A stretch of 64,000 bases of DNA, from NCBI GenBank assembly GCA_002482525.1, contig DLGC01000010.1, positions 10,834 to 74,833 of the forward strand, written 5' to 3'. A program made the position numbers and the translations under genes. Shown here in pieces: positions 13,070 through 62,472 of the stretch. The DNA is from Propionibacteriaceae bacterium UBA7704 (GTDB lineage Bacteria > Actinomycetota > Actinomycetes > Propionibacteriales > Propionibacteriaceae). How positions within the stretch are numbered: position 1 is the stretch's first letter; each line of letters starts with the position of its first letter. The notes under the pieces were generated by a model. It ran no database searches. It saw only the letters and a list, made by a program, of their open reading frames with translations, and had not been told where the DNA came from.

Positions 13070-13109
13070 ACAGAGCAGCCGAGTCAGTACCCCCAAAGCG
13101 TTCGGGAGT

Positions 13110-35774: not shown

Positions 35775-37676
35775 GTGAGGGTGGTTCATCGGTCGCCACG
35801 ACAACGGACGCGTCCAATTCTCATTGTCATCGCACTGTGTTTCGCCATGCTCGGCATCGGACCTGCGCCTGCCCATGCCGCGAATACAGTGCTCATCCCC
35901 GATCCGGCTCTTCGAAGCTGCGTACAAAACGAGCTGCAAGCGCACAGCATTTCGACCGAACTCACTGACGAGAACCTCGCGGCACTCCCATCCATCTCAT
36001 GCTCAGCGACGCGTGACGGCACTATTGCCAGTCTCGCCGGGTTGGAAAACCTGGCCAACGCTGATCAAGTCTCGCTTCCCGCAACAACGGTGTCGAATCT
36101 CACTGCACTGACCACACTGCCGAAGCTGACGACACTGTCGTTGGCGAGCACGACGCTGACCGATGGTTCGACGCTTGGCCAGCTGACTCAACTCACAGTC
36201 CTGCACCTGGATACACCGCAGCTCGGGAACGTCGGTTTCCTCTCCGAGCTCAGCCACCTGCGGGGCTTGAGACTGAAGGTTGCTGCCACGGCGTCAATGG
36301 CCCCGATTGCGCAGCTCGCCGATTTGTACTCTCTCTATCTCACTGTGCAAACGCCACAACTCCCGGAACTCACTCTGCCGCCGAGCGTACGAGCCCTGGG
36401 GGTTCTGGGAACATCTCTCACCACCGTGAACGCGTTGCCCAACGCAAGCCACGTCACGACCCTCGTCCTCGACCAGACTCGCAAGCTCGTCGAGCTCGAC
36501 GGGTTGGAAGGACTCTCGGGACTCACCACTCTCTACATCGGCGAAGGTAGCTTTCGCGACCTGCATCCGTTGACGTCGCTGACATCACTCACCAAACTGC
36601 GTGCCAACAACGGTGTGGTCGATGACCTCTCAGGCTTGGCCAACCTAACGCAGTTGACCACGCTCGAACTGGCGAACAACGACATCAGCGATCTCACGCC
36701 GCTGGCCGAACTGATCAATCTGAGCTACGTCAAGCTATCGGACAATCGTGTTTCTGATGTGACCGCTCTGGCCGGTGTTGCGCCCGACGCTACCGTCCAA
36801 CTGAGCGGCAATCGTCTGCGTGACCTCAGCCCGTTACCCGATGGCGCAACGGTGTACGCACTGAACCAGGCCACGCTGAAAGCGCCCGCCGCGACGGTCG
36901 GCGTCCCCTTCGACCTCGGCTTGCGAGCGGTTGATGGAACTCCACTGTGCCCGTCGTATCGGCAGAGTGCGCAGTGCGATGCCGGTCGAGTTAGCTATCC
37001 GCAATCAGGCACCTATGCCGGCACCGCTGTCTCCGCCGATGGCAGATTCCGGGTTGAAGTGTCACAGTATGCGGGCCCTGACCGGCCCTTCGAAGCGACG
37101 CTTCGTCCCAAAGTTGAAGGAACACCGCTGGTCGGACGCGTCTTGAGTTCGTCCTACCCGACGTGGATTCCGTACCCGGACACCGGGAGCTTCCGCTGGT
37201 ATTCGGGAGGCAAGGCGATCACCGGCTCTCTCGGAGCGGGGCAGACCTATCGGCTCCGTACTTCCGATGTCGGCAAACGCGTTCACGTCTGCTACACCGC
37301 CTCCCGAGACGGCTTCATCACGACGCAAGCGTGTTCGGCTCCCACCCTGGCCGTCCACAGCGGCGACATCTACTCGACGGCTCGCCCCACCATCAAGCGG
37401 AAACGCTACGGCAGGTTGGGCGTCGTGCTCGAGGGTAGGTTCAACGCCAATCGCTGGGACCCCGGGGTCGTGTTCCACTACCAGTGCTACCGCAACGGCA
37501 AACGAGTACGGCATTACAAGGGCGCCACCGAGAGAGGCCCCGTGTCCATCGGCTTCCTCACACGGCGCGACGTGGGCGCCCGCTACGAACTGCGGGTCAA
37601 AGCCACCAAGCCCGGCTGCCGCCCTGTCGTGGTCTACTCCAAGACCTTCCGCGTGAAGAAGTCCACCCTGCGCTGA
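35775..37676 (+). CDS. Secreted internalin-like LRR protein (LRR paralog 2)
   Basis: GTG start and signal peptide ending PAHA. Same architecture as 17011..18999: cap (IPDPALRSCV...STELTDENL), 22-residue LRRs, and two C-terminal Y-x-W modules (FRWYSGGKAITG..., FHYQCYRNGKRV...). Confidence 0.8.
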   Translation: MRVVHRSPRQRTRPILIVIALCFAMLGIGPAPAHAANTVLIPDPALRSCVQNELQAHSISTELTDENLAALPSISCSATRDGTIASLAGLENLANADQVSLPATTVSNLTALTTLPKLTTLSLASTTLTDGSTLGQLTQLTVLHLDTPQLGNVGFLSELSHLRGLRLKVAATASMAPIAQLADLYSLYLTVQTPQLPELTLPPSVRALGVLGTSLTTVNALPNASHVTTLVLDQTRKLVELDGLEGLSGLTTLYIGEGSFRDLHPLTSLTSLTKLRANNGVVDDLSGLANLTQLTTLELANNDISDLTPLAELINLSYVKLSDNRVSDVTALAGVAPDATVQLSGNRLRDLSPLPDGATVYALNQATLKAPAATVGVPFDLGLRAVDGTPLCPSYRQSAQCDAGRVSYPQSGTYAGTAVSADGRFRVEVSQYAGPDRPFEATLRPKVEGTPLVGRVLSSSYPTWIPYPDTGSFRWYSGGKAITGSLGAGQTYRLRTSDVGKRVHVCYTASRDGFITTQACSAPTLAVHSGDIYSTARPTIKRKRYGRLGVVLEGRFNANRWDPGVVFHYQCYRNGKRVRHYKGATERGPVSIGFLTRRDVGARYELRVKATKPGCRPVVVYSKTFRVKKSTLR

Positions 37677-37715
37677 TACCCAACCGCGCTCGCGTCCCCT
37701 GATCGACGCGACTCT

Positions 37716-40799: not shown

Positions 40800-42407
40800 C
40801 TACCTTTGGCCGACCTCCAGCAGAGCGGGGAGTTCCCGTCGCAGGATCTTTCCTGCTGCCGAGCGCGGCACCTTCGTCACGAAGGTCACGCCGCCGAGTC
40901 TCTTGTAGCTGGCGACCTGGTCGGAGACCCACCCGATGAGTTCCCGCGAACTGACCTCCGCCCCCTCACGCAACTGCACCACCGCGTGCGGGATCTGTTC
41001 CCCGGCGGTGCTGGCGGCGATACCGAGCACCCCGGCGTCGGCGACTGCCGAATGCGAACACAGCAACGCTTCGAGTTCGGCTGGTGCCACCTGGAAGCCG
41101 CGGCGTTTGATCAATTCCTTGATCCGATCGACGATGCGCACCACGCCTTCGGCATCAACCCGCACCAGGTCGCCGGTGTGCACCCAGCCGTCGGCATCCA
41201 GGACGGCGTCGGCGTCGCGCGGTATTCCGAGGTAGCCCAGCATGGCGTTGGGCCCGGTGCACCACAGCTCGCCGGGCTCACTGAGGCCTTCGGCGGGCAC
41301 TGCGACGTCCTGGCCGGTTTCGGGGTCGACAACCCGGAAGCGAACATTGGGGATGGCCAACCCGATAGTGCCGAGGTCAATGTCGCGCCGCTCCGGCGGA
41401 ATGACGTGGGTGACCGGGGAGAGCTCCGTCATCCCGTAGCCCTGCACCACGCGGGTGTTCAGGCGGGTTTGGATGGCTTCGCCGACCGGGCCGTCCAGCG
41501 GCGCGGCTCCGGAGACGATCAGCTTCACGCTGTCCCACGGCACTGAATCCACGGCCGGATGCTTGGCCAGGAAGGCTGCCACCGGCGGCACGACGAACAG
41601 CATGGACGGCCGGTAACGCGCGATGATCTCCAAGAACGCCTGCGGTGCAAAGCCCGACATCGTGTATTGGGTGAAGTGACGCAGCAGCCCGTAGTTGAGA
41701 TTGGTGGTCATGCCGTAGATGTGGCTGTAGGGCAGGAAGGCGACGATGGAGTTGTCATCGCCGAAGGAGGCCAGCACCTCGTTGAACTGCAGCAGATTCG
41801 CAACCAGATTGCGATGGCTGAGCATGACGATCTTCGGCAGGCCGGAGGTGCCCGAGGACACCGGCATGCAGGCGATGTGGGTGGCCGGGTCAATGCTCAC
41901 CTCGGGAAGGTCGACCGTGGTCTGCAGAAGCTCCGACCAGGCGGTGTGAGGCGAGCCCTCGACGGGATCGATCACGATGACCGACTCGGGCGGCAATCCG
42001 GCAGCAGCAGCACCCTCGGCAACCTTGGGCAACAGCAGTTGATTGGTGATGACGTAGCGGGCACCGGTCTCGCGCAGCTGACGGGCGATCTCGGTGGCGA
42101 TGGCGGCCGGGTTCACCGGGGTGGTCGCGGCGCCGGTGCGGGCAATGCCGTGAAAGGCGGCTGCGTAATGCGGGCAGTTGGGCAGATCGATGGCGACCGC
42201 CGATCCCGTTGCCACGCCGTGGGCGGCCAGCCAGCTGGCGACGGCGTCGGTCTGCTGTTTGACCTCGCCGTAGCTGAGGCTCAAGCCGGTTTCGGGCTCC
42301 ACGAAGGCGGTGCGTACCGAGTCGGCGTCCGAAAGGTCGGCGAAGAGCAGGGTGTAAAGGTCAACATCGGGGACGTCGATGTCCGGCAGCGGGCCGCGAT
42401 ACTCCAT
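40800..42407 (-). CDS. AMP-dependent synthetase/ligase (acyl- or aryl-CoA ligase)
   Basis: Trimmed to ATG 42407 (MEYRGPLPD...). AMP-binding motif SSGTSGLPKIV, then YGMTE, GDL..VD..G and IKRRGFQV. Confidence 0.85.
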   Translation of the reverse strand: MEYRGPLPDIDVPDVDLYTLLFADLSDADSVRTAFVEPETGLSLSYGEVKQQTDAVASWLAAHGVATGSAVAIDLPNCPHYAAAFHGIARTGAATTPVNPAAIATEIARQLRETGARYVITNQLLLPKVAEGAAAAGLPPESVIVIDPVEGSPHTAWSELLQTTVDLPEVSIDPATHIACMPVSSGTSGLPKIVMLSHRNLVANLLQFNEVLASFGDDNSIVAFLPYSHIYGMTTNLNYGLLRHFTQYTMSGFAPQAFLEIIARYRPSMLFVVPPVAAFLAKHPAVDSVPWDSVKLIVSGAAPLDGPVGEAIQTRLNTRVVQGYGMTELSPVTHVIPPERRDIDLGTIGLAIPNVRFRVVDPETGQDVAVPAEGLSEPGELWCTGPNAMLGYLGIPRDADAVLDADGWVHTGDLVRVDAEGVVRIVDRIKELIKRRGFQVAPAELEALLCSHSAVADAGVLGIAASTAGEQIPHAVVQLREGAEVSSRELIGWVSDQVASYKRLGGVTFVTKVPRSAAGKILRRELPALLEVGQR

Positions 42408-42699
42408 GGGAGCGCTCCGATCACTGGAAGAGTGGATCACAGGGTAGGGGTTCGCGACACCGCAATCCAGAGTGGATGATGAATTAGTCTTCTCCCGTCG
42501 CAGCAGCAACAGCATCCCCATCAGCAGGTTCTCGCAGGGATCAGTTCCATGCCTGATGAATTAGATCGGGCTTGAGGATCACCAAACAAACCGATCACTC
42601 CATCTGCAATCATCACCCCAGACGCTCTGCCAATCACACTCTGCGCGTCCTGCATTCCCACCCCTACAGGTGCTGCAATTGCCACTCTAGTGATAGCCT

Positions 42700-43980
42700 G
42701 TGGTTGTGGACACCTCAAAAGCACTTGGCCGGCGCTACCAACAGCGGGTCATCGATGCGCCCCTCCAACGTGCCCTGGAGGCCGCGGGCGCGGTGCTGAT
42801 AGAGGGAGCCCGCGCCACCGGAAAGACCATGACCGCCATGAATGCAGCGCGCTCTTTCGTCTTCATGGATGATCCAGAACTCAAACTGGTGATAGAAGAC
42901 GCCCCGCAGATGTTCCTCGGCGGCGAGAGACCCCGACTTCTCGACGAGTGGCAAGTCGCCCCGAGCCTGTGGAATCTCGTACGACGTTCTGTCGACTCCA
43001 CGGCCAGCCCCGGGCAGTTCATTCTGACCGGATCATCGGTGCCCGCCGACGACGTAACCCGCCACACTGGTGCCGGTCGATTCCTTCGGTTGCGACAGCG
43101 AACGATGTCCTGGTGGGAGAAGCTCGAATACCCGACCACGCAGGTCAGCCTTGCCGACTTGTTCGATGGCCGACGCCCCTCTGCGAGCCCGACCAGTAGC
43201 GATCTCGACACAGTCATCGACAACATATTGCGTCCGGGCTTCCCGGCCATGACCCAGCTCACACTGCCCCAGTCTGCGAAACGACTGCGCAGCTACATTG
43301 ATGATGTCGCGCGAACCGATATCCCCCGTCTAGCCGAGGTTCGACATCGGCCCGAGGTGGTGAAGCGCCTCATCAGCGCGATAGCTCGATCTGCGGCTTC
43401 TGAAGTTTCCCACGCCACACTCGCCAAGGATGTCCGCAGCGTTGCCCCGTCAATAAAGGCCGAGACGATCGCAAGCTACGTAGAGCTTCTTCAGCGGCTC
43501 TTCATCGTTGAACCACAGCCGGCCTGGAGCCCTGCGCTACGCTCCCGAGCCAGATTGCGCCGCGCTTCAAAGTTGCACCTGGCAGATCCGGCATTGGCTG
43601 CGGCGGCCCTGAGCGCAGGGCCGGATCAGCTCCGATCTGATCTGAAGACCCTGGGCTTTCTATTCGAGAGCGCAGTGATTCACGATCTGACGGTGTTCGC
43701 GCACGCACTCGACGGCGAGACGTTCCACTACCGCGACTCGAACGGCCACGAGATCGACGCAATCATCACTCTCCCCGATGGGCGCTGGGGCGCCGTTGAG
43801 GTCAAACTCGGTGGTTTGCGCGTACCCGATGCCGTGGCCTCACTTGACGCCGCCATCAGTCAAATCGACACCGGGGCAGTGGGCGATCCGAGCTTCCGAC
43901 TCGTCATCACCGGCACTGGCCCCACTCTGGTCACCTCCGATGGCACCGTGACGGCACCTCTAGCGGCGCTCTCGCCGTAA
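42700..43980 (+). CDS. AAA_14/DUF4143-family ATPase
   Basis: Walker A GARATGKT near the N-terminus, Walker B-like LLDEWQ, and a C-terminal DUF4143-like region (FESAVIHDL...YRDSNGHEIDAI). GTG start. Confidence 0.75.
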   Translation: MVVDTSKALGRRYQQRVIDAPLQRALEAAGAVLIEGARATGKTMTAMNAARSFVFMDDPELKLVIEDAPQMFLGGERPRLLDEWQVAPSLWNLVRRSVDSTASPGQFILTGSSVPADDVTRHTGAGRFLRLRQRTMSWWEKLEYPTTQVSLADLFDGRRPSASPTSSDLDTVIDNILRPGFPAMTQLTLPQSAKRLRSYIDDVARTDIPRLAEVRHRPEVVKRLISAIARSAASEVSHATLAKDVRSVAPSIKAETIASYVELLQRLFIVEPQPAWSPALRSRARLRRASKLHLADPALAAAALSAGPDQLRSDLKTLGFLFESAVIHDLTVFAHALDGETFHYRDSNGHEIDAIITLPDGRWGAVEVKLGGLRVPDAVASLDAAISQIDTGAVGDPSFRLVITGTGPTLVTSDGTVTAPLAALSP

Positions 43981-46125: not shown

Positions 46126-46203
46126 GGTCCCTAGAATCGGTGTCGGCGCCGCTTGACTCTCCCCCGGCGGGAGACCCCAGGCTGGAAATGGAGGGAGAAA
46201 AGA

Positions 46204-47019
46204 ATGAACCTCATCCAGATCGGCCGATTCTCTCGGGTGACTCGGTTGTCGGTAAAAGCGCTTCGTCGCTATGCCGACGAAGGCTTGCTCGTCCCCGCGC
46301 ATATTGATGCGTCCAGCGGGTACCGGTATTACACCTATGAGCAGGCTCGAGACGCCGAACTGATCCGGGTGCTGCGATCGTTGGACGTGCCGCTGAGCGA
46401 CATCCAGCGTGCCCTGCAGGCCACCGATCGACAGTCGTTCCTCACGATCCTGAGCGAGCACGAACTCAGGATCCAGAGCGAACTGGCTCACCAGCAGCGA
46501 ATGCTGGGCTTCCTCCGTCAACTCATCAACAACGAAGGAGTCCTCATGCCTTACGACATCTCGATCAAGCAGACCCCGGCCCACTTCGCCGCGGTCGTCC
46601 GTGCCGACGCCACTGCCGCCACCATGGCGGACACTGTCGGGGCCGGCTTCGCGGCAGCCGCGGCTGCCATCCAGGCCAGTGGCGCCGCCTTTGCGGGGCC
46701 TCCGTTCTTCTCCATGGCCACTCCACCCGACGACGAGCCGGCGGAAATCGAGGTGGGTTTCCCGGTGGCGACGGCCTTCACCGACCGTGACGGAGTCATC
46801 GGGGTCGAAGTGCCCGCCATGGTGGTCGCGGCGGCCATCCACCGCGGGCCTTACGATCAGGCCGGACCGGTCTACCAGGCGATCGAGGCCTGGATTCAGG
46901 CGCATGGCCACGCCGGGGTCGGTGCTCCCCGCGAGGTGTATCTGAACTCACCGGGCGATACCACCAACCCCGAGGACTACCTCACCGAGATTCAGTTCCC
47001 GATTTCGACTCCCGCGTAA
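46204..47019 (+). CDS. MerR-family regulator with a GyrI-like effector-binding domain
   Basis: ATG 46204 (GGAGGGAG SD). HTH IQIGRFSRVTRLSVKALRRYADEGLL, a coiled-coil linker, and a GyrI-like C-terminus (GPYDQAGPVYQAIEAWIQAHG...REVYLN). Confidence 0.85.
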   Translation: MNLIQIGRFSRVTRLSVKALRRYADEGLLVPAHIDASSGYRYYTYEQARDAELIRVLRSLDVPLSDIQRALQATDRQSFLTILSEHELRIQSELAHQQRMLGFLRQLINNEGVLMPYDISIKQTPAHFAAVVRADATAATMADTVGAGFAAAAAAIQASGAAFAGPPFFSMATPPDDEPAEIEVGFPVATAFTDRDGVIGVEVPAMVVAAAIHRGPYDQAGPVYQAIEAWIQAHGHAGVGAPREVYLNSPGDTTNPEDYLTEIQFPISTPA

Positions 47020-47186
47020 TCCCAGCGCCGCGATCGGCGGACGCGCCCGACATTTCCGGTCGCGCCGCCGATTGCGGGAATACCCGGCAGAATCGTCGAC
47101 GCTATTGCCCGAAATCACTGGGCCGCGCTGCTGCCCAGGCGGTTTCGCCCTCTAAGCTGACCGGTGATGCGCACTTTGGAACTCCG

Positions 47187-48164
47187 ATGACAGCCCCCGG
47201 CTGGGACGTGACCGGCTACTACGCCGTGCAGCTCCTTCCGGAGCAGGCACCGGCGGAATCGGGCGGACGGCTCGCCGAGCCCGGCATCATCGAGCCGCGA
47301 CCGCTGACGGTGGGCGATGTGCTCGGCGGCGCTTTTCGCGCCGTCCGCTATGCCCCGCTGACCATGTTCGGACTCACTTTGGTTGTGGTGCTCGTCGCCC
47401 AACTGGTCGCGGTGGGAGCGGGGTACCTGATCGATCGGCAGTTCGCGCCGATTCTTCCCCAGGATGACCTCGGCGGTGTCACCTCGATGTTCGGCTGGTC
47501 CAGTCTGACGTCCACGCTGGCCACGATGCTCGCAACCATTGTTGTGGAGATAGGGCTGTCTTTTGCCGTCCATGAAGCCGTCTTCGCTCGGCGGACGACG
47601 CCGTCCGCGGCGCTGCGACGGCTGGGCTCACGAGCTGGCGCCGCGATCGCCTTCGCCACCTTGACCGGGCTCGCCGGAGTCGTCGCGATTGGGCTCCTGG
47701 TTTTCGGCGCTGGAATGCTCGCCGAGGCTGTCGGCGAAGACGGCTGGCTGATCCTGGTGGTGCTGGTGCCCGCCTTTTTGGTTGCGGCGATCTGGATCAG
47801 CATCCGACTGCTGCTGGCACCGTGCGCGATCGCGATCGAGAAGGCCGGTCCGATTCAGGCGATTCGGCGAAGCTGGCGTCTCAGCAAAGGCCAGTTCTGG
47901 CGCATCCTGGGGATCTACCTGCTGGCCAGCATTCTCATTTCGATGGCGGCCAGCACGGTGTCATCGGTGTTCAGCTTCGTGATCTTGCTGATCGGCATGG
48001 CCAACATGGAGGTAGGACTGATCGCGGCCACCGTGGTGTCGACGGTGATCTCTGCGGTGCTCAGCGTCCCGCTCACCGCGGCCGTGGTCACCTTGTTGTA
48101 TGTGGACGCTCGCATCCGTGGTGAAGGGTATGAGCTGCAACTCGCCGAGGCCTTGTACGGATGA
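47187..48164 (+). CDS. Polytopic membrane protein, first gene of the MoxR-associated cluster
   Basis: 325 aa with about 6 TM segments. Its stop forms an ATGA overlap with the next gene. Position matches the membrane protein that precedes DUF4129 in actinobacterial MoxR clusters. Confidence 0.6.
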   Translation: MTAPGWDVTGYYAVQLLPEQAPAESGGRLAEPGIIEPRPLTVGDVLGGAFRAVRYAPLTMFGLTLVVVLVAQLVAVGAGYLIDRQFAPILPQDDLGGVTSMFGWSSLTSTLATMLATIVVEIGLSFAVHEAVFARRTTPSAALRRLGSRAGAAIAFATLTGLAGVVAIGLLVFGAGMLAEAVGEDGWLILVVLVPAFLVAAIWISIRLLLAPCAIAIEKAGPIQAIRRSWRLSKGQFWRILGIYLLASILISMAASTVSSVFSFVILLIGMANMEVGLIAATVVSTVISAVLSVPLTAAVVTLLYVDARIRGEGYELQLAEALYG

Positions 48165-48814
48165 GCCCACCACTGACTCCGAACAGCGACGAGGCCCGCC
48201 GCGAACTCGCCCATGAGCTGTCCAATCCCATCTACTCCGACCAGGGCAGTTGGATCGATGATCTGATCAATCGACTGCTGGACTGGCTGACCGGCGGCAC
48301 CCCACCAACTGAAGGGCTGTCCACCGGCCAATTGGTTGCCCTCATCGCGGTCGCAGCCGCTCTCGCCGCAGTCGTGGTGTGGGCACTGCTGGGTCCAGTC
48401 CGAAGCCGTCGCCGGGCTCGCGGCACCGCCTTGTTCGCAGCCGACGAGCGCACCGCGACGCAGCTGCGCGCCGAGGCCGAATCACTGGCCAGCTCCGAGC
48501 AGTGGAGCCTGGCCTACGTGACCCTGTTCCGGGCGATGATCCGTACCTTGGGTGAGCGGGGCGTGATCACCGAGTTCGCCGCCATGACCGCCCAAGAGGC
48601 GTCCGATCTCGCCGGCCAAAGACTGCCTGGTTTCGAGGCGCGTCTCGGCGCCGCGGCGGGGGTGTTCGATCTGTTGGCCTACGATCACCGCACCGCTCGC
48701 GCCGACCAGTATCAGCAGTTGGTGGATCTGGACGCTGAGGTGTCGACCGCTCAAGCTGTTGCGCCTGAAGCGGCCGTCGCGCTGACGCCGGTCAGGGTGG
48801 AGTCGGCGTCGTGA
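48161..48814 (+). CDS. DUF4129-like protein
   Basis: PLTPNSDEARRELAHELSNPIY N-terminus, one TM segment, and the C-terminal region YVTLFRAMIRTLGERGVI...MTAQEA. Call rests on remembered family features and on position in the cluster. Confidence 0.65.
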   Translation: MSPPLTPNSDEARRELAHELSNPIYSDQGSWIDDLINRLLDWLTGGTPPTEGLSTGQLVALIAVAAALAAVVVWALLGPVRSRRRARGTALFAADERTATQLRAEAESLASSEQWSLAYVTLFRAMIRTLGERGVITEFAAMTAQEASDLAGQRLPGFEARLGAAAGVFDLLAYDHRTARADQYQQLVDLDAEVSTAQAVAPEAAVALTPVRVESAS

Positions 48815-49947
48815 AGAAGCTGCTGATCATCTCCGGTGTGGTGCTGGCCCTTTTCGCCGGCCTTATCGCCGCCACCGTCTTCCTCCCTGAAAGCCCGGAT
48901 CGGCTGGCGAATTCGTTGACGAACCCTCGTCCCGAAGGTGCCCGGGCGCTCGGCCAGGTGCTCGCCCAGGATGGCGTGGCCGTCAACCAGACGAACTCGA
49001 TCGCCGACATCGCTGCCGCCCCGGCTGACTCGACCGTGGCCGTCGTGCTAGAGACGAGTCTGTCCGAGGACGAGGTTGCCGCACTCAACCAGACACCAGC
49101 CGACCTGGTCGTCATCTATTCCGGTTCCGGATTCTCAACCGACCCCGGCAAGCTCGCCGAGGGCCGCCTCGGCGTCCAGGATTGGTCGTGGGGCTATCCC
49201 GCGCCAAATGCCGAATGCGCCGACGCGGACGCCCTGGCCGCAGGCCGGCTCAGTGGCGACGTCGGCTACGGTCTGGTGGCTTTCGACGATCGTGTGATGA
49301 CGTGCTTCACCGACGGCAGCTATGCCAGCCTCTATGCCGACCTGACGACCAGTCGACACCGAGTGACGGTGGTGGCAGGCCTGTCCTGGATTCGAAATTC
49401 GGGCATCACCGACATGGGCAACGCAGCCCTGGCGCTGCGCACCCTGGGTCGCCATGATCAGCTCACCTGGTATCTGCCCGCGGACCGATCACCCACCACG
49501 GTCATTCCTGGCTCGCAAGGCATCGACTCCTTCGAGTTGCTGCCGCCGTGGTCTCGTCCGGTGTTCGGCGTGCTGCTGGCGGCTGCCGCTGCAGCCGCAC
49601 TGTGGCAGGGTCGCCGGTTCGGGGCGCTGGTTCGCGAACCGCTGCCGGTGGAAGTGCCCGCCTCGGAGGCCTCCGCCGGGCTGGCCCGGCTCTATCGTCA
49701 GGCCGGTGCTCGTGGCCACGCCGCTGCAGCCCTGCGTGCTGCGACCATCCACCGTGTCGCCGCCCGGGTGGGCGTGACGGCATCGGACGCTCCGGACACG
49801 GTGATCAGCCAACTCGCGCAGGCCAGCGGAGCTGATCCCGCAGCACTCACTGAGGCGCTCTACGGCCCCCCACCGACCACCGATACTGGCCTGGCGATTC
49901 TCGCCGAGACCTTGACCGACCTCGAAAGAAAGCTGAGCAGCCGATGA
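48811..49947 (+). CDS. DUF4350-like protein
   Basis: GTGA overlap at the start. N-terminal TM segment, then NPRPEGARALGQVLAQDGV. A second TM segment lies near residue 250. Position is immediately upstream of MoxR. Confidence 0.65.
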   Translation: MKKLLIISGVVLALFAGLIAATVFLPESPDRLANSLTNPRPEGARALGQVLAQDGVAVNQTNSIADIAAAPADSTVAVVLETSLSEDEVAALNQTPADLVVIYSGSGFSTDPGKLAEGRLGVQDWSWGYPAPNAECADADALAAGRLSGDVGYGLVAFDDRVMTCFTDGSYASLYADLTTSRHRVTVVAGLSWIRNSGITDMGNAALALRTLGRHDQLTWYLPADRSPTTVIPGSQGIDSFELLPPWSRPVFGVLLAAAAAAALWQGRRFGALVREPLPVEVPASEASAGLARLYRQAGARGHAAAALRAATIHRVAARVGVTASDAPDTVISQLAQASGADPAALTEALYGPPPTTDTGLAILAETLTDLERKLSSR

Positions 49948-51089
49948 CCGATTCCCTGCCGCCCAGTGCGGGACAGCCGTACCCCACCCCGCCAGGCGTC
50001 GGCGCCCTGCCGCCGGTCACGGACTCGCCGGAGTCCTTTTTCGCACCCACCCCGGCATCGGCTCCCCCGTCGGGCCTGCCGACCCCGATGGGTACGCCTC
50101 CGGCAGCCGTCGCACCGCCGTCGACGCCCCGGTTCGCGCTGAATCCGGCGCAGGAAACCCTGCAGCGGGTCCGTGCCGAGGTGGCCAAGGCTGTGGTGGG
50201 TCAGGACGCCGCGGTCACCGGCCTGTTGGTCGGGCTGTTGGTCGGCGGTCACGTGCTGCTGGAGGGTGTGCCGGGGGTCGCCAAGACACTGCTGGTGCGG
50301 GCCCTGTCGGCGAGCCTGAGCCTGGAGACTCGACGCGTCCAGTTCACCCCTGATCTGATGCCCGGTGATGTCACCGGTTCGTTGATCTACAACGCCCAGG
50401 CCGGCGAGTTCGACTTCCGTCCCGGCCCGATCTTCACCAACCTGCTGCTGGCCGATGAGATCAACCGCACTCCGCCCAAGACGCAGGCGGCTCTGCTGGA
50501 GGCGATGGAGGAGCATCAGGTGAGCGTGGACGGCGACTCGCGCGAGCTGCCTGATCCGTTCATGGTGGTGGCTACGCAGAATCCGGTCGAGTACGAGGGC
50601 ACCTATCCGTTGCCGGAGGCCCAACTGGATCGCTTCCTGTTGAAGATCGTGCTGCCGATTCCGCCGCGTGAGGACGAGATCACCGTGCTGTCGCGTCACG
50701 CTGCCGGCTTCAACCCCAGCGATCTGAAGGCTGCCGGGTTGACCCAGGTCGCGCAGGCATCCGACTTGGTCACCGCCCGTGAGCAGGTGGCTCGCGTCCG
50801 GGTCGATCCGCAGGTCACCGGCTACATCGTGGATTTGTGTCGCGCCACCCGCTCGGCACCGTCGGTGTCGCTGGGGGTGTCGCCGCGTGGCGCCACCGCA
50901 CTGTTGAAGACTGCGCGGGCGTGGGCCTGGCTCAGCGGGCGCGATTTCGTCACTCCCGATGATGTGAAGGCCATGGCGGTCGCCACGCTCAATCACCGCA
51001 TCGGCATTCGCACCGAGGCCCAGATGGACGGCCAGCAGGCGGCCGGCATCATCACCAATGTGCTGGCCACGGTGCCGGTGCCGCGCTGA
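49944..51089 (+). CDS. MoxR-family AAA+ ATPase with a Pro-rich N-terminal extension
   Basis: Walker A GVPGVAKT, Walker B LLADEINR, and ATQNPVEYEGTYPLPEAQLDRF. About the first 60 residues are Pro-rich low complexity. Confidence 0.9.
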   Translation: MTDSLPPSAGQPYPTPPGVGALPPVTDSPESFFAPTPASAPPSGLPTPMGTPPAAVAPPSTPRFALNPAQETLQRVRAEVAKAVVGQDAAVTGLLVGLLVGGHVLLEGVPGVAKTLLVRALSASLSLETRRVQFTPDLMPGDVTGSLIYNAQAGEFDFRPGPIFTNLLLADEINRTPPKTQAALLEAMEEHQVSVDGDSRELPDPFMVVATQNPVEYEGTYPLPEAQLDRFLLKIVLPIPPREDEITVLSRHAAGFNPSDLKAAGLTQVAQASDLVTAREQVARVRVDPQVTGYIVDLCRATRSAPSVSLGVSPRGATALLKTARAWAWLSGRDFVTPDDVKAMAVATLNHRIGIRTEAQMDGQQAAGIITNVLATVPVPR

Positions 51090-51094
51090 CGCCG

Positions 51095-52399
51095 ATGGCG
51101 ATTTCGGGGCGAGTACCGCTGCTGGTGCTGCTGGGGGTGGTGCCGACCATCATCTGGCCACAGCCGCTGACAGTGATCGGCTGGGTATTGCTGGTCGTGA
51201 TCGTCAGCGGTATTGATCTGCTGGCTGCGGTGCGTCCGGAGTTGTTGCAGTTCAGTCGCGAGTTACCGCCCAGTGTGCGACTCAGCGAGACCACCACCTC
51301 GACGGTGACGGTGTTGAATCCGACGCGGCGGCGTGCTCGGGTGCAGGTGCGTGACGCGTGGCCGCCGAGCGCGACTCCAGCGGCACAGCGTCCGCTGCTG
51401 GTGGTGAATCCGGGCAGTTCGCTGCGTCAGCTCACCGAGCTGACGCCGACTCGGCGCGGCGATCTGGCTGCGGCTGCGGTGACGGTGCGCTCCTTCGGGC
51501 CGCTGCGGTTGGCGGCCCGTCAGCGTTCGCTGAGCGTGCCGGGGGTGCTGCGGGTGCTGCCGGAGTTTCGTTCGCGCAGCCACTTGCCGTCCCGGCTGGC
51601 CCGGCTGCGGGAGCTGGACGGTCAGGCCTCGGTGCAGGTGCGCGGCCAGGGCACTGAGTTCGATTCGTTGCGCGAGTATGCCGCCGGTGATGATGTGCGC
51701 TCCATCGACTGGCGGGCGACCGCGCGCGCCACACGCACCATGGTTCGCACCTGGCGTCCGGAGCGGGATCGGCATGTGCTGATGGTGTTGGATACCTCTC
51801 GCTGGGCGGCTGGCCGGATCGGCGGTGCTGCTGCCGATCAGTTGCGGTTGGATGCCGGTATCGAGGTGTGTCTGTTGATGGCCGCGCTCGGCTCGGCGTC
51901 CGGGGATCGGATGAGCCTGTTGCTGGCCGATACCGAGGTGCGCCAGCGCCTGGCCGGCACGGCGAAGGGTTCAGCGCTGGCCGCCTTCGCCGACCGCCTG
52001 AGTCTGGCCGAGGCCGAGCTCACCGAAACCGACTGGTCGATGGTGGCCGCCCAGGTGAACCAACTGTGCCGCCAGCGCAGCCTGGTGGTGCTGATCACCG
52101 GCCTGGACCCGGCCTTGTACGCCGAGGGTTTGGGCACCGTGCTGGGTCAACTCGCCCACAGCCACCAGATCGTCATCGCCCACGTCACCGATCCGGCCGA
52201 ACAAACCCCGCTCGACGACACCCCCGACGCCGATGCCTCCTACGACGCCGCCGCCTCAGCCCGACTGTGGCTGGCAACCCAGGCCCTGTCCAACCGAGTG
52301 CACCGCATGGGCGTCGAAGTCGTCCACGCCGACCCCGATCACCTCGCCCCCGCCGTCTGCGACACCTACCTGACCCTGAAAGCCACCGGTCGCCTCTAA
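51095..52399 (+). CDS. DUF58 protein (MoxR partner)
   Basis: GTEFDSLREYAAGDDVRSIDWRATAR signature, two N-terminal TM segments, and a VWA-like C-terminal half. Confidence 0.85.
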   Translation: MAISGRVPLLVLLGVVPTIIWPQPLTVIGWVLLVVIVSGIDLLAAVRPELLQFSRELPPSVRLSETTTSTVTVLNPTRRRARVQVRDAWPPSATPAAQRPLLVVNPGSSLRQLTELTPTRRGDLAAAAVTVRSFGPLRLAARQRSLSVPGVLRVLPEFRSRSHLPSRLARLRELDGQASVQVRGQGTEFDSLREYAAGDDVRSIDWRATARATRTMVRTWRPERDRHVLMVLDTSRWAAGRIGGAAADQLRLDAGIEVCLLMAALGSASGDRMSLLLADTEVRQRLAGTAKGSALAAFADRLSLAEAELTETDWSMVAAQVNQLCRQRSLVVLITGLDPALYAEGLGTVLGQLAHSHQIVIAHVTDPAEQTPLDDTPDADASYDAAASARLWLATQALSNRVHRMGVEVVHADPDHLAPAVCDTYLTLKATGRL

Positions 52400-52426
52400 C
52401 TGCCCGCAGCCAGCCCATTCCTCGTT

Positions 52427-52571
52427 CCCTGAGCTTGTCGAAGGGCCCACCACCGGCTGGTTGAGGAGGCCCAAGGGGCCGTCTCGAAACCACGCAAGAT
52501 ACACGCACAGCCAAACGACACCACAACCCCGGTTTCGAGACGCTCGCTTCGCTCGCTCCTCAACCAGCCGG
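52427..52571. repeat. Repeat cluster: FDKL-type element plus an inverted/forward REP pair
   Basis: CCCTGAGCTTGTCGAAGGGC at 52427-52446. Inverted REP unit at 52453-52491 (inner hairpin GGCCC-aag-GGGCC). Forward REP unit at 52531-52571. The same pair recurs at 53536-53652. Confidence 0.75.
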
Positions 52572-52591
52572 CCGGCCAATTGGTGCGTAGG

Positions 52592-53278
52592 TCAGGGACG
52601 ATCTTCGTAGTAGGTCTGGCCGACAGTGATCCACGCGAACCATTGATACTCCGACAAGCTACGGAGGAGTTCATCCGATGACGGACCAGAAATTCGCCGA
52701 GACTGCTCCGTGGTCTCACCAACAAGAAAATCCGAAATCGGCACTATCGACCGCTGTGCCGACGCAAACGTTACCCAGACCCTCGCCTGATCAGAACACC
52801 TGTATATTGCCACCGTCGTTGGAGCACCCCCAATGGGCGACTGGGGCCCGGGATCCAGCTCCAGGGTTGGGCACTTGCCTGCAATTCGGTCGCGAACTGC
52901 AATCGCCATATCTTCATATTCCCCGGACCACGCCAAGTACGACGCCGCAGAGGCTGCGCACGACAACCGAAATCCGTCATGGACCTTGTAATTGTTCTGA
53001 CCCTGCTCACACGAAGTCCAGACGGTCTCACCGATGGAAGAGGCACTGTCAGTCCTCAATTCTCTCGAAAGATCCGACACTTGACTGATAGCGGCAAGCC
53101 GCTCCCCATTCGCGACTCGCCCATCCAACACGTCAGCCATCGTCGGCCTTGCCCATTCGAAAAATGGGTCCACTCCGAGTGCCCACGCAGATACTCGTCC
53201 AGCAACAAACAACCCCGCAGTCATCGTTATAGCAACCAGGACCCCACCAACTGCCGCCCGGACCCATTTGCGCTTCAT
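52592..53278 (-). CDS. Membrane-anchored extracytoplasmic protein, islet paralog A
   Basis: Trimmed to ATG 53278 (AGGAAGG SD). N-terminal KRK + TM segment. About 45-50% identical by eye to 53843..54541, including four aligned Cys. GC content is visibly lower than in the flanks. Confidence 0.6.
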   Translation of the reverse strand: MKRKWVRAAVGGVLVAITMTAGLFVAGRVSAWALGVDPFFEWARPTMADVLDGRVANGERLAAISQVSDLSRELRTDSASSIGETVWTSCEQGQNNYKVHDGFRLSCAASAASYLAWSGEYEDMAIAVRDRIAGKCPTLELDPGPQSPIGGAPTTVAIYRCSDQARVWVTFASAQRSIVPISDFLVGETTEQSRRISGPSSDELLRSLSEYQWFAWITVGQTYYEDRP

Positions 53279-53535
53279 AACACCCTTCCTCGGGCTCACC
53301 ATAATCACCCCAGCCTTACCGGGGACACACCTCGGCGTCACGCAAGGAATGCCGACCGACGCCGTATGCGCCTCCTCTTGGCTTTGCACTGCAACGCGGG
53401 GATCGCATCGCACGCACTACCTCACCTCCATGCGTCGCGACGAAACCCACTGCGAGTTGACCCCGGCCACACGGCAGCGACTTGCGACTCCGCACCCTCC
53501 ACGAAGCGCCCCACACGAAGCCACCCCTACCCCCA

Positions 53536-53652
53536 CGGCTGGTTGAGGAGGCCCGAAGGGCCGTCTCGAAACCACGCAAGACACACGCAGAACCAAGCGG
53601 CACGACGACCTTGGTTTCGAGACGCTCGCTTCGCTCGCTCCTCAACCAACCG
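53536..53652. repeat. Inverted/forward REP pair between the two islet paralogs
   Basis: Inverted unit 53536-53573 and forward unit 53613-53652, nearly identical to 52453-52571 including the spacer ACGCAAGA(T/C)ACACGCA. Confidence 0.75.
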
Positions 53653-53842
53653 AGGCGGTGACGCGTCCAGGAACTGCCGCCCACAGCAGCCGTGTACGAG
53701 TCGCCGGGCGCGAGGACTTTCGGGCGTTCTGGCGCTTCACCCTCCGGCACTTGAGCGCGCGCCACCGATGACTGAAGCCACATCAGTACCACTAGCATTA
53801 TTGAGATTAGAGGCGTTACGCGCCGCTTTTCAACTACTGGAA

Positions 53843-54541
53843 TCACGGCTGATCCTCAAAGTAGACTCTGCGACTGCTAACTACAGCAAACCATTGATAC
53901 CCGGAAAGACTCGTGAATAGCTCGGTGGACGACGGACCTGACACTCGCCGCGCACTATCGGACGTTTCGCCTATTGAAAGACTCGGATACGAGGAACTCA
54001 TCCCATTGGTGGTCGAAAATTTCACGAGTACGTAAGTTCGTTGATCACACTCGTATCGCGAGACTTCTGTTGGATACCCTGGGGGAGGTTCATGAACATC
54101 GGGCGAAAGCGTGACGCCTGGGCACACACTTGCGACTCTTGCCCGGATCTTTGCAGCCGTGTCAGCGAACTCCCCCGACCAGGCTCGATAGGACACTACA
54201 TCAGCCGCGCATTGAAGCCGATAGCCATCCTGACGCTTCCAGCTGTTCTGCCCCTCCACACAGGAGGTCCAGACCACCTCCGCCACAGGGGTAACACCGT
54301 CAACCACGGACTCCCGAGAAAGGCCCGTCATCTCACTGATCACCGCACGTCTCTCCGCATCAGCAACCCGACCGTCCAAAACATCAGCCACCGTCGGCTT
54401 CGGAGGCTCGAACAGGCCATGACCGTAGACGAACTCAGACATCCGATCAGTCACAAACAGGCCCGCAGCCACCAACACACACACAGATGCCACCACGGCG
54501 ACAGTGGTCCAAATCCGCTTGCTCTTCACACGTTTCACCAA
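53843..54541 (-). CDS. Membrane-anchored extracytoplasmic protein, islet paralog B
   Basis: 232 aa. MVKRVKSKRIW + TM segment. Shares PT(V/M)ADVLDGRVA, VWTSC.(E)GQN, DG(Y/F)RL.CAA, AWSGE, GETS/T, SGPSS.EL, YQWFA and Y(F/Y)ED(Q/R)P with paralog A. Confidence 0.6.
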   Translation of the reverse strand: MVKRVKSKRIWTTVAVVASVCVLVAAGLFVTDRMSEFVYGHGLFEPPKPTVADVLDGRVADAERRAVISEMTGLSRESVVDGVTPVAEVVWTSCVEGQNSWKRQDGYRLQCAADVVSYRAWSGEFADTAAKIRARVASVCPGVTLSPDVHEPPPGYPTEVSRYECDQRTYVLVKFSTTNGMSSSYPSLSIGETSDSARRVSGPSSTELFTSLSGYQWFAVVSSRRVYFEDQP

Positions 54542-54856
54542 TCAGTTTCGCCACTGCGCTCCGGCAACACGTGAGGATGCCGACCCCGCACGCATCGGAA
54601 GCGCATCCCCCAACCAAGACGAGCACAACTCCGCCAACACCACGGTGTACCGAATAGCCGATTGCATAGCGAGCGTTGCCTCATCTCCCGGGCCGAGTCG
54701 AGCCCCTCGGCACACGCTACTGCAAATCAGTCGATCGAGAACAGTGTTTCTGCATGTGTCTTTCTGGTGTTCTTCCGGAACCCACCAGCACACCCTCAGG
54801 AGCGCCTTCAGGGGCCACCTCAAAGCCACACCGGACCTGAGCACGCTGGCGAGCGA

Positions 54857-55195
54857 GGTTTCGAGACGCTCGCTTCGCTCGCTCCTCAACCAACCGGCGA
54901 AAGTAGACCCACACCAATCCAAGAGGGCATCACCGCACTCCACCGGTCCACGCCACCCCGCGGCTGGTTGAGGAGGCCCGCAGGGCCGTCTCGAAACCAC
55001 GCACGGTGCATGTGGAGTTGAGGGGTGCGACGGCCTTGGTTTCGAGACGCTCACTTCGCTCGCTCCTCAACCAGCCGGGGCAAAGTGGGCGGGATTCGAC
55101 AAGCTCAGCCAACGGGGCGGGGGGATTCGAGACGCTCGCTTCGCTCGCTCCTCAACCACCCGGGGTGAAATGGGCGGGCTTCGACAAGCTCAGCC
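54857..55195. repeat. Repeat cluster of four REP units and two FDKL-type elements
   Basis: REP units at 54857-54897 (forward), 54961-54998 (inverted), 55038-55078 (forward) and 55123-55163 (forward). GG(A/C)TTCGACAAGCTCAGCC at 55092-55110 and 55177-55195. 55038-55110 and 55123-55195 form an 85-bp tandem duplication. The last element overlaps the SpoIIM-like stop codon. Confidence 0.75.
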
Positions 55196-56185
55196 GGCGA
55201 CGGCGACTTCGGTGCGGGCTTCTTCTTCGGTGAGGCCGGGGTCGGTACCGGCATCGACGGCGCGGCGTCCGGCCACGAACATGACCAGCCAGAACGCGGT
55301 CACGGCGAGCACACCGAAGGCGATCTTCAGCCAAGGCGCAAGCTGGGAGCCGGTGATGAATCCCTCGATGAGGCCACTGACACCCAAACCGATGGTGATC
55401 GCCACCACCACGACCAGCGTGGTGCGTCCTTCCTGGGCCAACGATTGGACGCGGGTGCGATGCCCGGGCACCAGCCACGCCCAGAACAGTCGCACCCCGG
55501 CAGCACCGGCAACGAAGACACAACTGAGCTCGAGCAGACCGTGGGGCAGGATCAGCGTCCAGAACACCTGATCAGCGCCTTGGACGTGCATGACCGCTGC
55601 GGCCGCCCCCAGGCTGACCGAGTTCTCGAACAGCACCATCGCCGGGTACAGCCCGGTGATTCCGGTGGCGATGCACAACGCAGCGATCATCGAGTTGTGG
55701 GTCCACACCAGACTGGCGAAGCTCGCACTGGGATAGGTCGAGTAATAGGACGCGAAAGCCTCCTGGGCATACTCCTTCTGGTCTTCCGGCGAGATCACCG
55801 AGTTCAGCAGCTCGATATTGCCGGCCATCCAAAAGCCGGCCACCACTGCGACGAGCAGGCCGAAGACCGACGCCGCCACCGACCACCAGCGCACCCGATA
55901 CAGCGCGGCTGGAATGGTGCGGGTGAAGAACCGGCCCACCGAGATCCAGGTGAGATCGTGCGGACTGCTGATGCGCGCCTTGGCTTTCACCAACAGCACC
56001 GACAGCTCGTTCACCAAGCCCGGCTCAGGTGCCCGTGAACGCAGCAGCGACAGGTGAGTGGCGGTCTGTCGATAGAGGCGCACCAGCTCGTCGGCCTCTC
56101 GGCCGGTCAGGCGACGCTGCGCCGACAACTGCTGCAGCCGCTGCCACTGCCCGGTGTGCGCGGCCACGAACACATCGACATCCAC
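55190..56185 (-). CDS. Stage II sporulation protein M-like (DUF95) membrane protein
   Basis: Long ORF trimmed to GTG 56185. The N-terminus VDVDVFVAAHTGQWQRL matches the typical actinobacterial SpoIIM-like start. About 6 TM segments. Divergent from the RDD gene. Confidence 0.75.
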   Translation of the reverse strand: MDVDVFVAAHTGQWQRLQQLSAQRRLTGREADELVRLYRQTATHLSLLRSRAPEPGLVNELSVLLVKAKARISSPHDLTWISVGRFFTRTIPAALYRVRWWSVAASVFGLLVAVVAGFWMAGNIELLNSVISPEDQKEYAQEAFASYYSTYPSASFASLVWTHNSMIAALCIATGITGLYPAMVLFENSVSLGAAAAVMHVQGADQVFWTLILPHGLLELSCVFVAGAAGVRLFWAWLVPGHRTRVQSLAQEGRTTLVVVVAITIGLGVSGLIEGFITGSQLAPWLKIAFGVLAVTAFWLVMFVAGRRAVDAGTDPGLTEEEARTEVAVAG

Positions 56186-56242
56186 GCGCCTCAGCGTAGC
56201 GTCGGCCACCGCAGCCGCGACGCGGCACGCTAGCCTCGTCCC

Positions 56243-57067
56243 ATGAGCGACGAGATCCTGACCGGCGAAGGGGTTGCGCTGCAACTCAGCGCCGCCTCTG
56301 TGCTCATCCGTGCCGGCGCCTGGCTGATCGACGCCTTCGTCATCGTGTTGGTCATGATCGCGCTGCCGCTGGGGCTGCTCGCCGTTGTCGGCACCGATCG
56401 CTTCGATCCAGCCATGGCCGAAGCCGCAGTATCGGTGATGATCTTCATCGCCTTCATCGTGGTTCCCGCCGCGACCGAGACCCTCACCCACGGTCGATCG
56501 CTGGGAAAGCTCGCCTTGGGCCTGCAAGTGATCCGCGACGACGGCGGCCCGGTGCGGCTGCGTCACTCCGCCGTGCGCGCCCTGGTCGGATTCTTTGAAC
56601 TGTGGCTGCTGATGGGCGGCTTGGCCTTCATGGTGGCGATGTTCAACGACCGCGGCAAACGAGTGGGCGACTTCCTCGCCGGCACCTACGTGGTGCGCAT
56701 CAAATCCCGCCCCCGAAGCAACACCCCACTCTGGCTGCCCGCGCAGCTGGCGACGTGGGCCAGCCTGACCGACATCCGCCCACTGCCGGCAGGCTTGGCG
56801 CTGCGCGCACGCCAGTTTCTGGGACGCGCCCACCAGTTCCCGCCGCAGGTTCGCTACCGCATGGCGTTGCGGTTATCGGCGCAGCTGGAACGGTTCGTCG
56901 CACCGGCGCCACCATGGGGGACGCCTCCAGAGGAGTACATCGCCGCTGTGCTGTTCGAGCGCCGTCGCCGCGACCAGGAGGCCTACGATCGCCGACAACC
57001 TCGGCTGCAAAGCCACCTGGCCGCGATCGATGTGCTGCCCTATTCGGTTCCCGATCCCGAGAGCTGA
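56243..57067 (+). CDS. RDD-family membrane protein
   Basis: N-terminal TM pair and LGLQVIRDDGGP, which contains the RDD motif. 274 aa. Partners the SpoIIM-like gene, as in other actinobacteria. Confidence 0.8.
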   Translation: MSDEILTGEGVALQLSAASVLIRAGAWLIDAFVIVLVMIALPLGLLAVVGTDRFDPAMAEAAVSVMIFIAFIVVPAATETLTHGRSLGKLALGLQVIRDDGGPVRLRHSAVRALVGFFELWLLMGGLAFMVAMFNDRGKRVGDFLAGTYVVRIKSRPRSNTPLWLPAQLATWASLTDIRPLPAGLALRARQFLGRAHQFPPQVRYRMALRLSAQLERFVAPAPPWGTPPEEYIAAVLFERRRRDQEAYDRRQPRLQSHLAAIDVLPYSVPDPES

Positions 57068-57083
57068 CCCGCCCCGCTGGCTA

Positions 57084-57162
57084 CCCCAATTCCGTTAGCT
57101 GCCCCAATTCCGTTGGCTGAGCTTGTCGAAGCCCCGCCGGGGGTGCCCTTCGACAGGCTCAG
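57084..57162. repeat. Tandem 18-mer plus a palindrome of two FDKL-type elements between convergent genes (terminator candidate)
   Basis: CCCCAATTCCGTT(A/G)GCTG twice (57084-57101 and 57102-57119). Arms CTGAGCTTGTCGAAG (57117-57131) and CTTCGACAGGCTCAG (57148-57162), 14/15 complementary, with a 16-nt GC-rich loop. Confidence 0.55.
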
Positions 57163-62403: not shown

Positions 62404-62445
62404 CCGGCTGGTTGAGGAGACCGCGAAGCGGTCGTCTCGAAACCC
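62404..62445 (-). repeat. Single inverted REP unit between convergent tetR and amidase genes
   Basis: CCGGCTGGTTGAGGAGACCGCGAAGCGGTCGTCTCGAAACC with inner hairpin GACCGC-gaa-GCGGTC. Confidence 0.7.
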
Positions 62446-62472
62446 TCCCGCACCCCGGCACCCACTCAACCC

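Follow-up and report, generated by a model that had tools for sequence, protein, structure and literature searches.

How did a stretch of foreign-looking DNA come to lie between two core genes that meet at their 3′ ends? The question is raised by a gene islet in Propionibacteriaceae bacterium UBA7704 (assembly GCA_002482525.1, contig DLGC01000010.1, positions 10,834 to 74,833), a stretch of 64,000 nucleotides that was analysed as a whole and is called the window below. The original prediction, made from the letters of the DNA, had described a 2.8-kb islet of lower GC (guanine plus cytosine) content that separates a DUF58 gene from a SpoIIM-like gene, holds two paralogous genes and is bounded by repeats suspected to be substrates or scars of its insertion. 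We propose that it is a strain-variable accessory islet, probably gained in the lineage of the window, with joints formed by recombination at repetitive extragenic palindromic (REP) units, and exchanged among strains. It provides a clean case of a filled versus an empty site in which host REP hairpins mark all joints of an actinobacterial gene islet, and it bears on the question of whether REP units and their hairpin-forming doublets (REPINs) seed gene gain, loss and rearrangement or merely accumulate in neutral DNA. It is at the same time a fairly ordinary accessory islet, a new example of a known feature that does not overturn current understanding.

The islet core (52592-54856) is flanked by the DUF58 gene, the last of its operon (51095..52399, plus strand; Pfam PF01882, 3.4e-23), and by the convergent gene of a SpoIIM-like membrane protein (55190..56209, minus strand; PF01944, 2.3e-34; called with 339 amino acids in L083, which is 99.99% identical to the window and represents the same genome). 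Its GC content is 0.59, compared with 0.65-0.70 in the flanks. In 400-nt windows the GC content dips to 0.53-0.60 at about 52400-54800, against 0.66-0.70 on the DUF58 side and 0.64-0.69 on the SpoIIM side; in 700-nt windows over the entire 64 kb (mean 0.650, standard deviation 0.027), the minimum of 0.559 falls inside the islet. With the hairpins excluded, the islet has a GC content of 0.587 over 2139 nt. The two paralogs, A and B, show GC contents at third codon positions (GC3) of 0.594 and 0.584, against 0.813 ± 0.030 (minimum 0.760) in 26 neighbouring genes (z about -7), which bears out in numbers the difference that had been estimated by eye. The low GC content extends to the remnant of a third gene and to the non-coding parts of the islet. 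Counting its own hairpins, the islet spans 52449-54856, a stretch of about 2.5 kb with a foreign-looking composition. Lower GC is also seen elsewhere in the window. A stretch of 0.59-0.60 at 34700-37700, with no flanking REP units, contains the gene of a 633-residue leucine-rich-repeat protein (35775-37676, GC3 0.72) and an open reading frame with no Pfam match (34736-35755, GC3 0.57); values below 0.60 further occur at 1-800 and at 42250-43150, the latter overlapping the start of an AAA_14/DUF4143 ATPase gene (42700-43980, GC3 0.70).

Close relatives, found by a DUF58 protein search and registered, where named, as Propionibacteriaceae bacterium or Propionicimonas sp., carry an empty junction. 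The gap between DUF58 and SpoIIM is 447 bp in L109/L110 (DUF58 95% identical at the amino acid level; GCA_003451975.1) and 435 bp in L105 (90%), in both cases containing only repeats, and 9 bp in L112 (80%). None of these relatives has the paralogs at the junction, and the insertion supposed in the original prediction is thus supported by three relatives without the islet. Collinearity between L109 and the window runs from DUF58 to 52437; L109 then has five tandem 20-mers and one hairpin, and collinearity resumes at the right arm of the right-hand hairpin of the window, termed R, and extends to SpoIIM. Hairpin R matches L109 with 87% identity over 155 nt, reaching into the right flank. Accordingly, the empty site consists of the left flank, one hairpin and the right flank, and the filled site of the left flank, hairpin L, the islet, a half unit with a spacer, hairpin R and the right flank. 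The region 54857-55081, comprising a solitary REP unit, or half hairpin (54857..54896, plus strand), the following spacer and R, is probably resident, because the empty site of L105 likewise consists of a half unit, a spacer and a hairpin. In two further DUF58 relatives, at 98% and 88%, the contigs both end 65 nt after DUF58, within repeats. The five 20-mers of L109 (TATCGTTCCCTGAGCCTGCC, at 5720-5800 of that contig, after the DUF58 stop) are derived from a second repeat motif.

Three hairpins of 126 nt each, L (52449..52574), M (53531..53656) and R (54956..55081; all plus strand), lie at the two edges of the islet and between the paralogs, where clusters of repeats had been predicted. Each is composed of GGCTGGTTGAGGAG, an inner mini-hairpin, CGTCTCGAAACC, a loop of about 39 nt (39 nt in L), and the reverse complement, GGTTTCGAGACG..CTCCTCAACCAGCC, that is, of two inverted REP units around a loop. 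Their folding energy on the minus strand is -70 to -73 kcal/mol (z = -5.7 to -6.4; L: -73 kcal/mol, z = -6.4) and on the plus strand -59 kcal/mol, the z values of both strands spanning -5.7 to -6.8, and 100 shuffles gave no repeat matches. A second motif accompanies them. One arm of it (TTCGACAAGCTCAG type; 52428..52442, minus strand) belongs to the left flank common to the empty sites. The right flank (55095..55194, plus strand) contains the second motif at 55095-55109, a REP unit at 55123-55162 and the second motif again at 55180-55194, the last copy supplying the stop codon of SpoIIM. The same repeat family recurs in the window at 9880-10640 (11 units) and as single units at 13018-13075 and 62405-62465, and the second motif at 46036 and 57117-57162. 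In total, about 21 REP units occupy five intergenic places in the 64 kb, where none is expected by chance. The cluster at 9880-10640, made up of hairpins and tandem units, is gene-free and has an SDR gene (9106-9864) on one side and a GH15/trehalase-like gene (10645-12444) on the other. Within the 64-kb window, the genes adjoining REP clusters encode SDR, GH15, RpiB and a biotin-lipoyl protein, and include no transposase and no REP-associated tyrosine transposase (RAYT), the Y1 enzyme whose gene, in genomes with REPINs, usually has REPs on its flanks. An Rfam search at E ≤1 over 51500-56000 returned only a chance mir-133 match on hairpin R. The repeats thus belong to a genome-wide family and are not specific to the islet, yet every islet joint in the window falls on one of them.

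The loops distinguish the hairpins further. One loop type, GGAGTTGAGGGG, is present in R and in L109, and with a one-base change, GGAGTTGAGCGGG, in L105; the other (ACGCA.A.CCAA) is present in L, in M and in the 3′ hairpin of L092, an islet-bearing contig. Because the loop types separate them, R is assigned to the resident spacer, as the orthologue of the lone hairpin in the empty sites, and L and M to the islet. These elements resemble REPINs, defined as REP doublets forming a hairpin in PMC3337134 and PMC3116915 (Bertels and Rainey 2011): two REP units in inverted orientation enclose a spacer and pair into a long hairpin, here of 126 nt, and the copies are numerous, all extragenic, single or clustered, and often placed after stop codons or between convergent genes. 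They differ in that the host is an actinobacterium of the Propionibacteriaceae, whereas the cited studies describe them in Pseudomonas and Enterobacteria; in that a mini-hairpin lies inside every REP unit, its stem varying between copies, as judged by eye, with the pairing kept; and in that the joints of a gene islet fall on the hairpins. The suggestion that the repeats were substrates or scars of the insertion holds in part, as they are plausible recombination substrates; as a genome-wide family already resident at the empty site, they are not the signature of a dedicated mobile element.

Three features that the original prediction had missed are a hydrolase stump, differences in gene order among relatives, and a mosaic of sequence identity around the junction. 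The stump (53657..53846, minus strand) is what is left, about 57 codons, of the gene of a secreted GDSL/SGNH hydrolase. It starts with a GTG that overlaps the B stop codon and codes for a signal peptide and 'LAPGDSYTAAVGG', after which the frame enters hairpin M and is cut off exactly there. The stump itself has no Pfam match; it aligns to a GDSL protein of contig L081 (tblastn, 44% over 48 amino acids), which matches Lipase_GDSL_2 (PF13472) at 3e-10, has a Sec-type signal peptide and is encoded by an intact-looking gene overlapping the stop of the local B homologue, B′. GDSL/SGNH hydrolases combine a block I GDS motif with downstream blocks that carry the remaining catalytic residues. Only the signal peptide and block I ('GDSYTA') are kept in the stump, which by this account is a gene remnant and not a working hydrolase. 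The same stump and hairpin are found in L092, in which hairpin M occupies the same place with 93.7% contiguous identity, and a longer stump of 81 codons followed by a REP unit is found in L104.

The islet genes recur in several arrangements. In L092-L097, Logan contigs of about 2 kb with a GC content of 0.58, A is 90.6% and B 93.7% identical in DNA, and the order is REP, A, B, stump, hairpin, unlike that of the window; between the A and B matches lies an unmatched spacer of 33 nt (41 nt from the A stop to the B start). L104, at about 70% DNA identity, has the order of the window: B′, stump, REP, A′. L081, 86% identical to L104, reads A′, a short hairpin, an eroded 3′ fragment of DUF58, the B upstream region, B′ and GDSL. 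The region upstream of B in the window (54542..54856, minus strand) is conserved with those of L081 and L104 (local alignment z = 26.6 and 16.4, respectively; blastn 73% over 124 nt), and that upstream of A (53279..53530, minus strand) has no detectable similarity to its counterpart in L092. The islet is thus structurally plastic, with internal joints at repeats in the window, L092 and L104. In L081, the A′-B′ joint also holds the DUF58 fragment. This fragment (385-520 of L081, minus strand) comprises about 45 codons and would have arisen either from a tandem duplication, one of whose ends lay in DUF58, or through an integration that copied the DUF58 end. We rejected it as a pointer to a living DUF58 lineage, as it is an eroded remnant at best 60-69% identical to any real DUF58 C-terminus, and it allows no host assignment. 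All islet-bearing contigs (L092-L097, L104 and L081) stop in repeats, so that their chromosomal position is not visible.

These observations enable us to propose a putative history of the islet. The islet lies where the MoxR/DUF58 operon and the SpoIIM-like gene converge 3′ to 3′, a place at which an insertion breaks no operon, and in this clade the spacer there was colonised by REPIN-like hairpins beforehand. The islet may be viewed as a decayed tandem array, comprising two paralogs still under purifying selection and a hydrolase stump cut by a hairpin. A gain in the lineage of the window is preferred over three losses, with joints presumably formed by recombination at REP units: hairpin L would have taken the position of the resident hairpin with the loop type of the islet, and R would have retained the resident loop. 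Among related strains, the islet would be swapped or removed through homologous recombination that acts on the hairpins as well as on the flanking core genes, and the paralogs would have survived the loss of their hydrolase partner in the manner of orphan immunity-type or partner genes. What we infer here concerns the mechanism of gain, the choice between gain and loss, the enzyme and the function of the proteins.

Several points weigh against this proposal. Gain and loss would leave identical structures, and the polarity is drawn by parsimony from only three relatives. L092-type relatives, 90-94% identical in DNA, carry the genes at a locus hidden where their contigs stop in repeats. The A′ gene of L081 lies beside the eroded DUF58 fragment, so that the link to the locus may be old, which fits a recent gain less well. 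Copies about 30% apart in DNA keep a GC3 of about 0.56-0.61 with no amelioration, and a simple one-off transfer fails on this point. No recombinase, circular form or donor was identified. The role suggested for the proteins is read from their gene neighbourhood, and homology to any characterised protein was not found.

The strongest competitor, which we consider somewhat less probable, holds that the hairpins were uninvolved and that a diverged relative donated a longer tract with the islet at its centre, taken up by homologous recombination in the flanks (allelic replacement) after conjugation, transduction or transformation. Sequence comparison of the window with L109 revealed a mosaic in keeping with it. 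DNA identity is 95-98% over 46.7-50.5 kb, 86-94% in DUF58, 87-95% in SpoIIM and 83-85% in RDD; over 46700-57100, identity at third codon positions steps across the junction from 92-94% in the three upstream genes through 85% in MoxR and 81% in DUF58 and SpoIIM to 65% in RDD, and the synonymous divergence (dS) rises from 0.08 in the membrane protein gene to 0.30 in DUF58 and 0.70 in RDD. The same three upstream genes are the most diverged ones against L105 and L112 (47-53% third-position identity). Because this inversion of identity is not a rate effect, one of the genomes appears to have replaced the junction region from a more distant relative. Judging from this pattern, homologous recombination in the flanks can provide a second route for gain or loss of the islet, and as a vehicle it is equally likely. 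It would explain the spread of the islet among relatives, but not its first entry into the spacer, and it leaves the REP unit at every module boundary unexplained; moreover, the contig of L109 ends in RDD, so that the right end of the tract is not seen. Replacement of a tract is compatible with gain at REP units and does not exclude it.

It is unlikely, though conceivable, that the islet is ancestral at the junction and that the lineages of L109, L105 and L112 lost it when its direct hairpins recombined, leaving one hybrid hairpin. The islet does lie between direct hairpin repeats, and crossing over in the left arm would yield exactly the structure of L109; an old association with the locus is also suggested by the A′ gene next to a DUF58 3′ fragment in L081 and by the order B, stump, REP, A that L104 shares at only about 70% DNA identity. 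However, two or three independent losses would be required, the 9-bp gap of L112 holds no repeat to recombine, and a GC3 of 0.58 must have resisted amelioration over a long vertical descent. Still less probable is that the genes are native and that their low GC is a family property owing to fast evolution, weak expression or selection on composition, for which speak a tandem pair in a patch of lower GC on an unrelated high-GC contig, L117, and the GC3 of 0.56-0.61 in all copies of the subfamily of the window, against the absence of the genes from the junction in three relatives, the host-like GC3 of other family members (0.79 in L084) and the equally low GC of the stump and the non-coding parts of the islet.

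Known types of small mobile DNA provide further points of comparison. The islet shares with small genomic islets at hotspots an atypical composition, presence in some strains and absence in others, a position between convergent core genes, and a site that holds other cargo in other lineages; it differs from them in having no integrase, tRNA target or recognisable mobile-element gene and in being bordered by host repeats. Among the classical hallmarks of islands, atypical composition and presence/absence were found, and a tRNA or attachment site, an integrase and short direct repeats were not. As the original prediction had stated, there is no tRNA gene, here across the whole 64-kb window, and an island targeting a tRNA was accordingly rejected. 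Likewise, no integrase, transposase or other recognisable mobile-element gene was found, which led us to reject a composite transposon; beyond A, B and the stump, the islet contains only open reading frames that overlap them or cross the repeats, and those crossing or overlapping frames were not scanned against family libraries. A scan for promoters and terminators gave nothing exceeding the shuffled expectation.

A further parallel in layout is that with integron cassettes, which are mostly promoterless and carry attC hairpins recognised by an IntI integrase encoded next to attI/Pc. Both have their genes in one orientation, behind each module lies an imperfect palindrome, about 125 nt long, whose ends are conserved and whose centre varies, and the order of modules is permuted among relatives. 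The integron core consensus is GTTRRRY / RYYYAAC; the outer boxes of the hairpins, GTTGAGG / CCTCAAC, match it at 6 of 7 positions, which is a resemblance only. Unlike cassette palindromes, the hairpins also occur in gene-free clusters (11 units at 9880-10640), and the modules keep about 250-300 nt of their own upstream DNA, with no integrase nearby. A true integron was rejected on account of the gene-free hairpin clusters, the absence of a recombinase in or beside the islet, and the lack of an Rfam match. A bolder and highly speculative reading is that the gene-plus-hairpin modules (A with L; B and stump with M) are mobile cassettes: a hairpin-specific recombinase encoded elsewhere in the genome, of RAYT-type Y1 or another kind, would cut them out, change their order and place them into resident REPIN-like hairpins. 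Four observations leave room for it: a hairpin or half hairpin at every module boundary, a loop type of the islet hairpins distinct from the resident one, a module order permuted between relatives only 6-9% apart in DNA, and exactly one hairpin in the empty site. If true, it would amount to an integron-like system built on REPINs in an actinobacterium.

We further analysed the two paralogs. A (52592..53278, minus strand; 228 amino acids) has a Shine-Dalgarno-like motif, GAGGAAGGG, 5 nt ahead of its ATG, and B (53843..54541, minus strand) comprises 232 amino acids from a TTG start; an alternative GTG start at 54529 would yield 228 amino acids and fits the homologues better, leaving the true start of B uncertain. 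Both consist of an N-terminal membrane helix followed by a predicted extracytoplasmic alpha/beta domain. They are 46% identical (E = 6e-69), and are thus paralogs as predicted. B is absent from the called genes of L083 (8089-10001), its exact sequence is absent from the protein collection, and its close relatives are called from an internal start (213 amino acids). Between the window and L092, the ratio of nonsynonymous to synonymous divergence (dN/dS) is 0.40 for A and 0.21 for B, so that both are still functional coding genes under purifying selection. Compared with L109, the window shows ratios of 0.07-0.09 in RDD, DUF58 and the membrane protein gene; selection on A and B is thus weaker than that on the core genes.

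Neither A nor B has a match in Pfam, NCBIfam or PADLOC, nor have ten distant family members in Pfam. An alignment of nine members revealed 35 invariant columns, including three invariant cysteines, and a fourth cysteine column in eight of the nine. Its motifs are DVLDGRVA, C-x-EGQN (C-x-x-GQN across the nine), R-L-x-C, AWSG, SGP and Y-x-WF, with a C-terminal (Y/F)(F/Y)(E/Q)D tail. A and B conform to the description of this unnamed family in their length of about 225 amino acids, N-terminal membrane helix and motifs. An AlphaFold2 model of B (predicted local distance difference score, pLDDT, 81; predicted template modelling score, pTM, 0.72) displays an N-terminal helix at residues 5-40 and then the alpha/beta domain. 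Its best match in the Protein Data Bank (PDB) by Foldseek, with E = 0.012 and template modelling scores ≤0.27, is meaningless, and the family profile found no match among PDB sequences. The proteins are predicted to have a single-pass membrane anchor and an extracytoplasmic domain, which is probably disulfide-bonded.

The family is rare, with six clusters among 5.8 billion proteins in a word-based search, and 107 clusters at E ≤1e-3 (27 at 1e-30) in an exhaustive profile search of 1.84 billion representatives. All members checked are metagenome-derived and annotated at most as 'hypothetical protein', and a scan of metagenome contigs added only short contigs. Nothing points to carriage by a plasmid or phage: B had no tblastn match in 72,556 plasmids and 50,697 phages, and the family alignment none in a scan of viral contigs. 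A second tandem pair of family genes is found in L101. The pair on L117 (4152-5856; second member against the profile, hhalign E = 1e-44) lies in a patch of GC content 0.62-0.65, against 0.69-0.75 around it, within a polysaccharide/cell-envelope cluster that includes GH71, an acetyltransferase, GT4 and a Wzz-kinase fused to a GDSL domain.

In L084-L091, family genes are followed by an alpha/beta-hydrolase esterase gene and preceded by a HisKA_3/LuxR two-component pair. From such gene neighbourhood only, A and B are likely cell-envelope proteins that partner a secreted esterase or guard against it, and the analysis defines a small unnamed family of paired, membrane-anchored, predicted extracytoplasmic proteins linked to secreted esterases. 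Lipase foldases and effector-immunity pairs are similar in that the gene of a membrane-anchored protein is translationally coupled to a secreted GDSL gene, as in L081, and orphan immunity arrays in that tandem paralogs persist here where the hydrolase decayed. A and B are unlike foldases and immunity proteins in that they show no sequence or fold similarity to them and have no secretion system nearby. The comparison with lipase partners draws on gene neighbourhood only.

The junction was also surveyed across Actinomycetota by a scan of GTDB species representatives with DUF58, which covered 80 loci of relatives at ≤56% identity. The cluster order in the window, as given by Pfam, is membrane protein (GPDPase_memb), DUF4129, DUF4350, MoxR (AAA_3), DUF58, convergent SpoIIM, RDD and patatin-like; every flanking gene named in the original prediction has its Pfam match. 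The adjacency of the DUF58 and SpoIIM-like genes that it had stated for the Rv3689-Rv3695 arrangement of Mycobacterium tuberculosis is corroborated: in a published table (PMC8191103), Rv3691-Rv3695 are, by consecutive locus tags, DUF4350, MoxR, DUF58, SpoIIM-like and RDD, MAB_0390c-MAB_0386c belong to the same families, and the genes are co-repressed. A convergent SpoIIM gene is within reach in 41 of the 80 loci, all with the same gene order. The gap to DUF58 is ≤180 bp in 18 of them, 0.5-0.9 kb in 3 and 1-6.2 kb in 20. Hence 23 of the 41 hold 0.5-6.2 kb of cargo that is unrelated between lineages, for instance an MIP channel, an AlkZ-like glycosylase, YibE/F, a catalase, a glycosyltransferase, an MFS transporter or a helix-turn-helix protein; the paralogs occur in none of the 80. 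The convergent DUF58/SpoIIM junction of this cluster, which is widely conserved in actinobacteria, is thus a recurrent landing place for unrelated cargo, variable in many lineages.

In Streptomyces, the junction holds a complete rRNA operon (5S, 23S, 16S), as seen in L033 (11421-16593; Streptomyces sp. NBC_01511) and also in L070, and because of this operon about 20 draft contigs of Streptomyces break off 100-400 bp beyond DUF58. Another variable junction of the same cluster is the interval between BipA and the membrane protein gene. In the window it contains a MerR/GyrI-like regulator gene (46153-47019), which is also present in L116 and of which only the 3′ end lies on the L109 contig. L105 is without this gene, BipA being directly followed by the membrane protein gene, and L112 has a different gene of 219 amino acids there.

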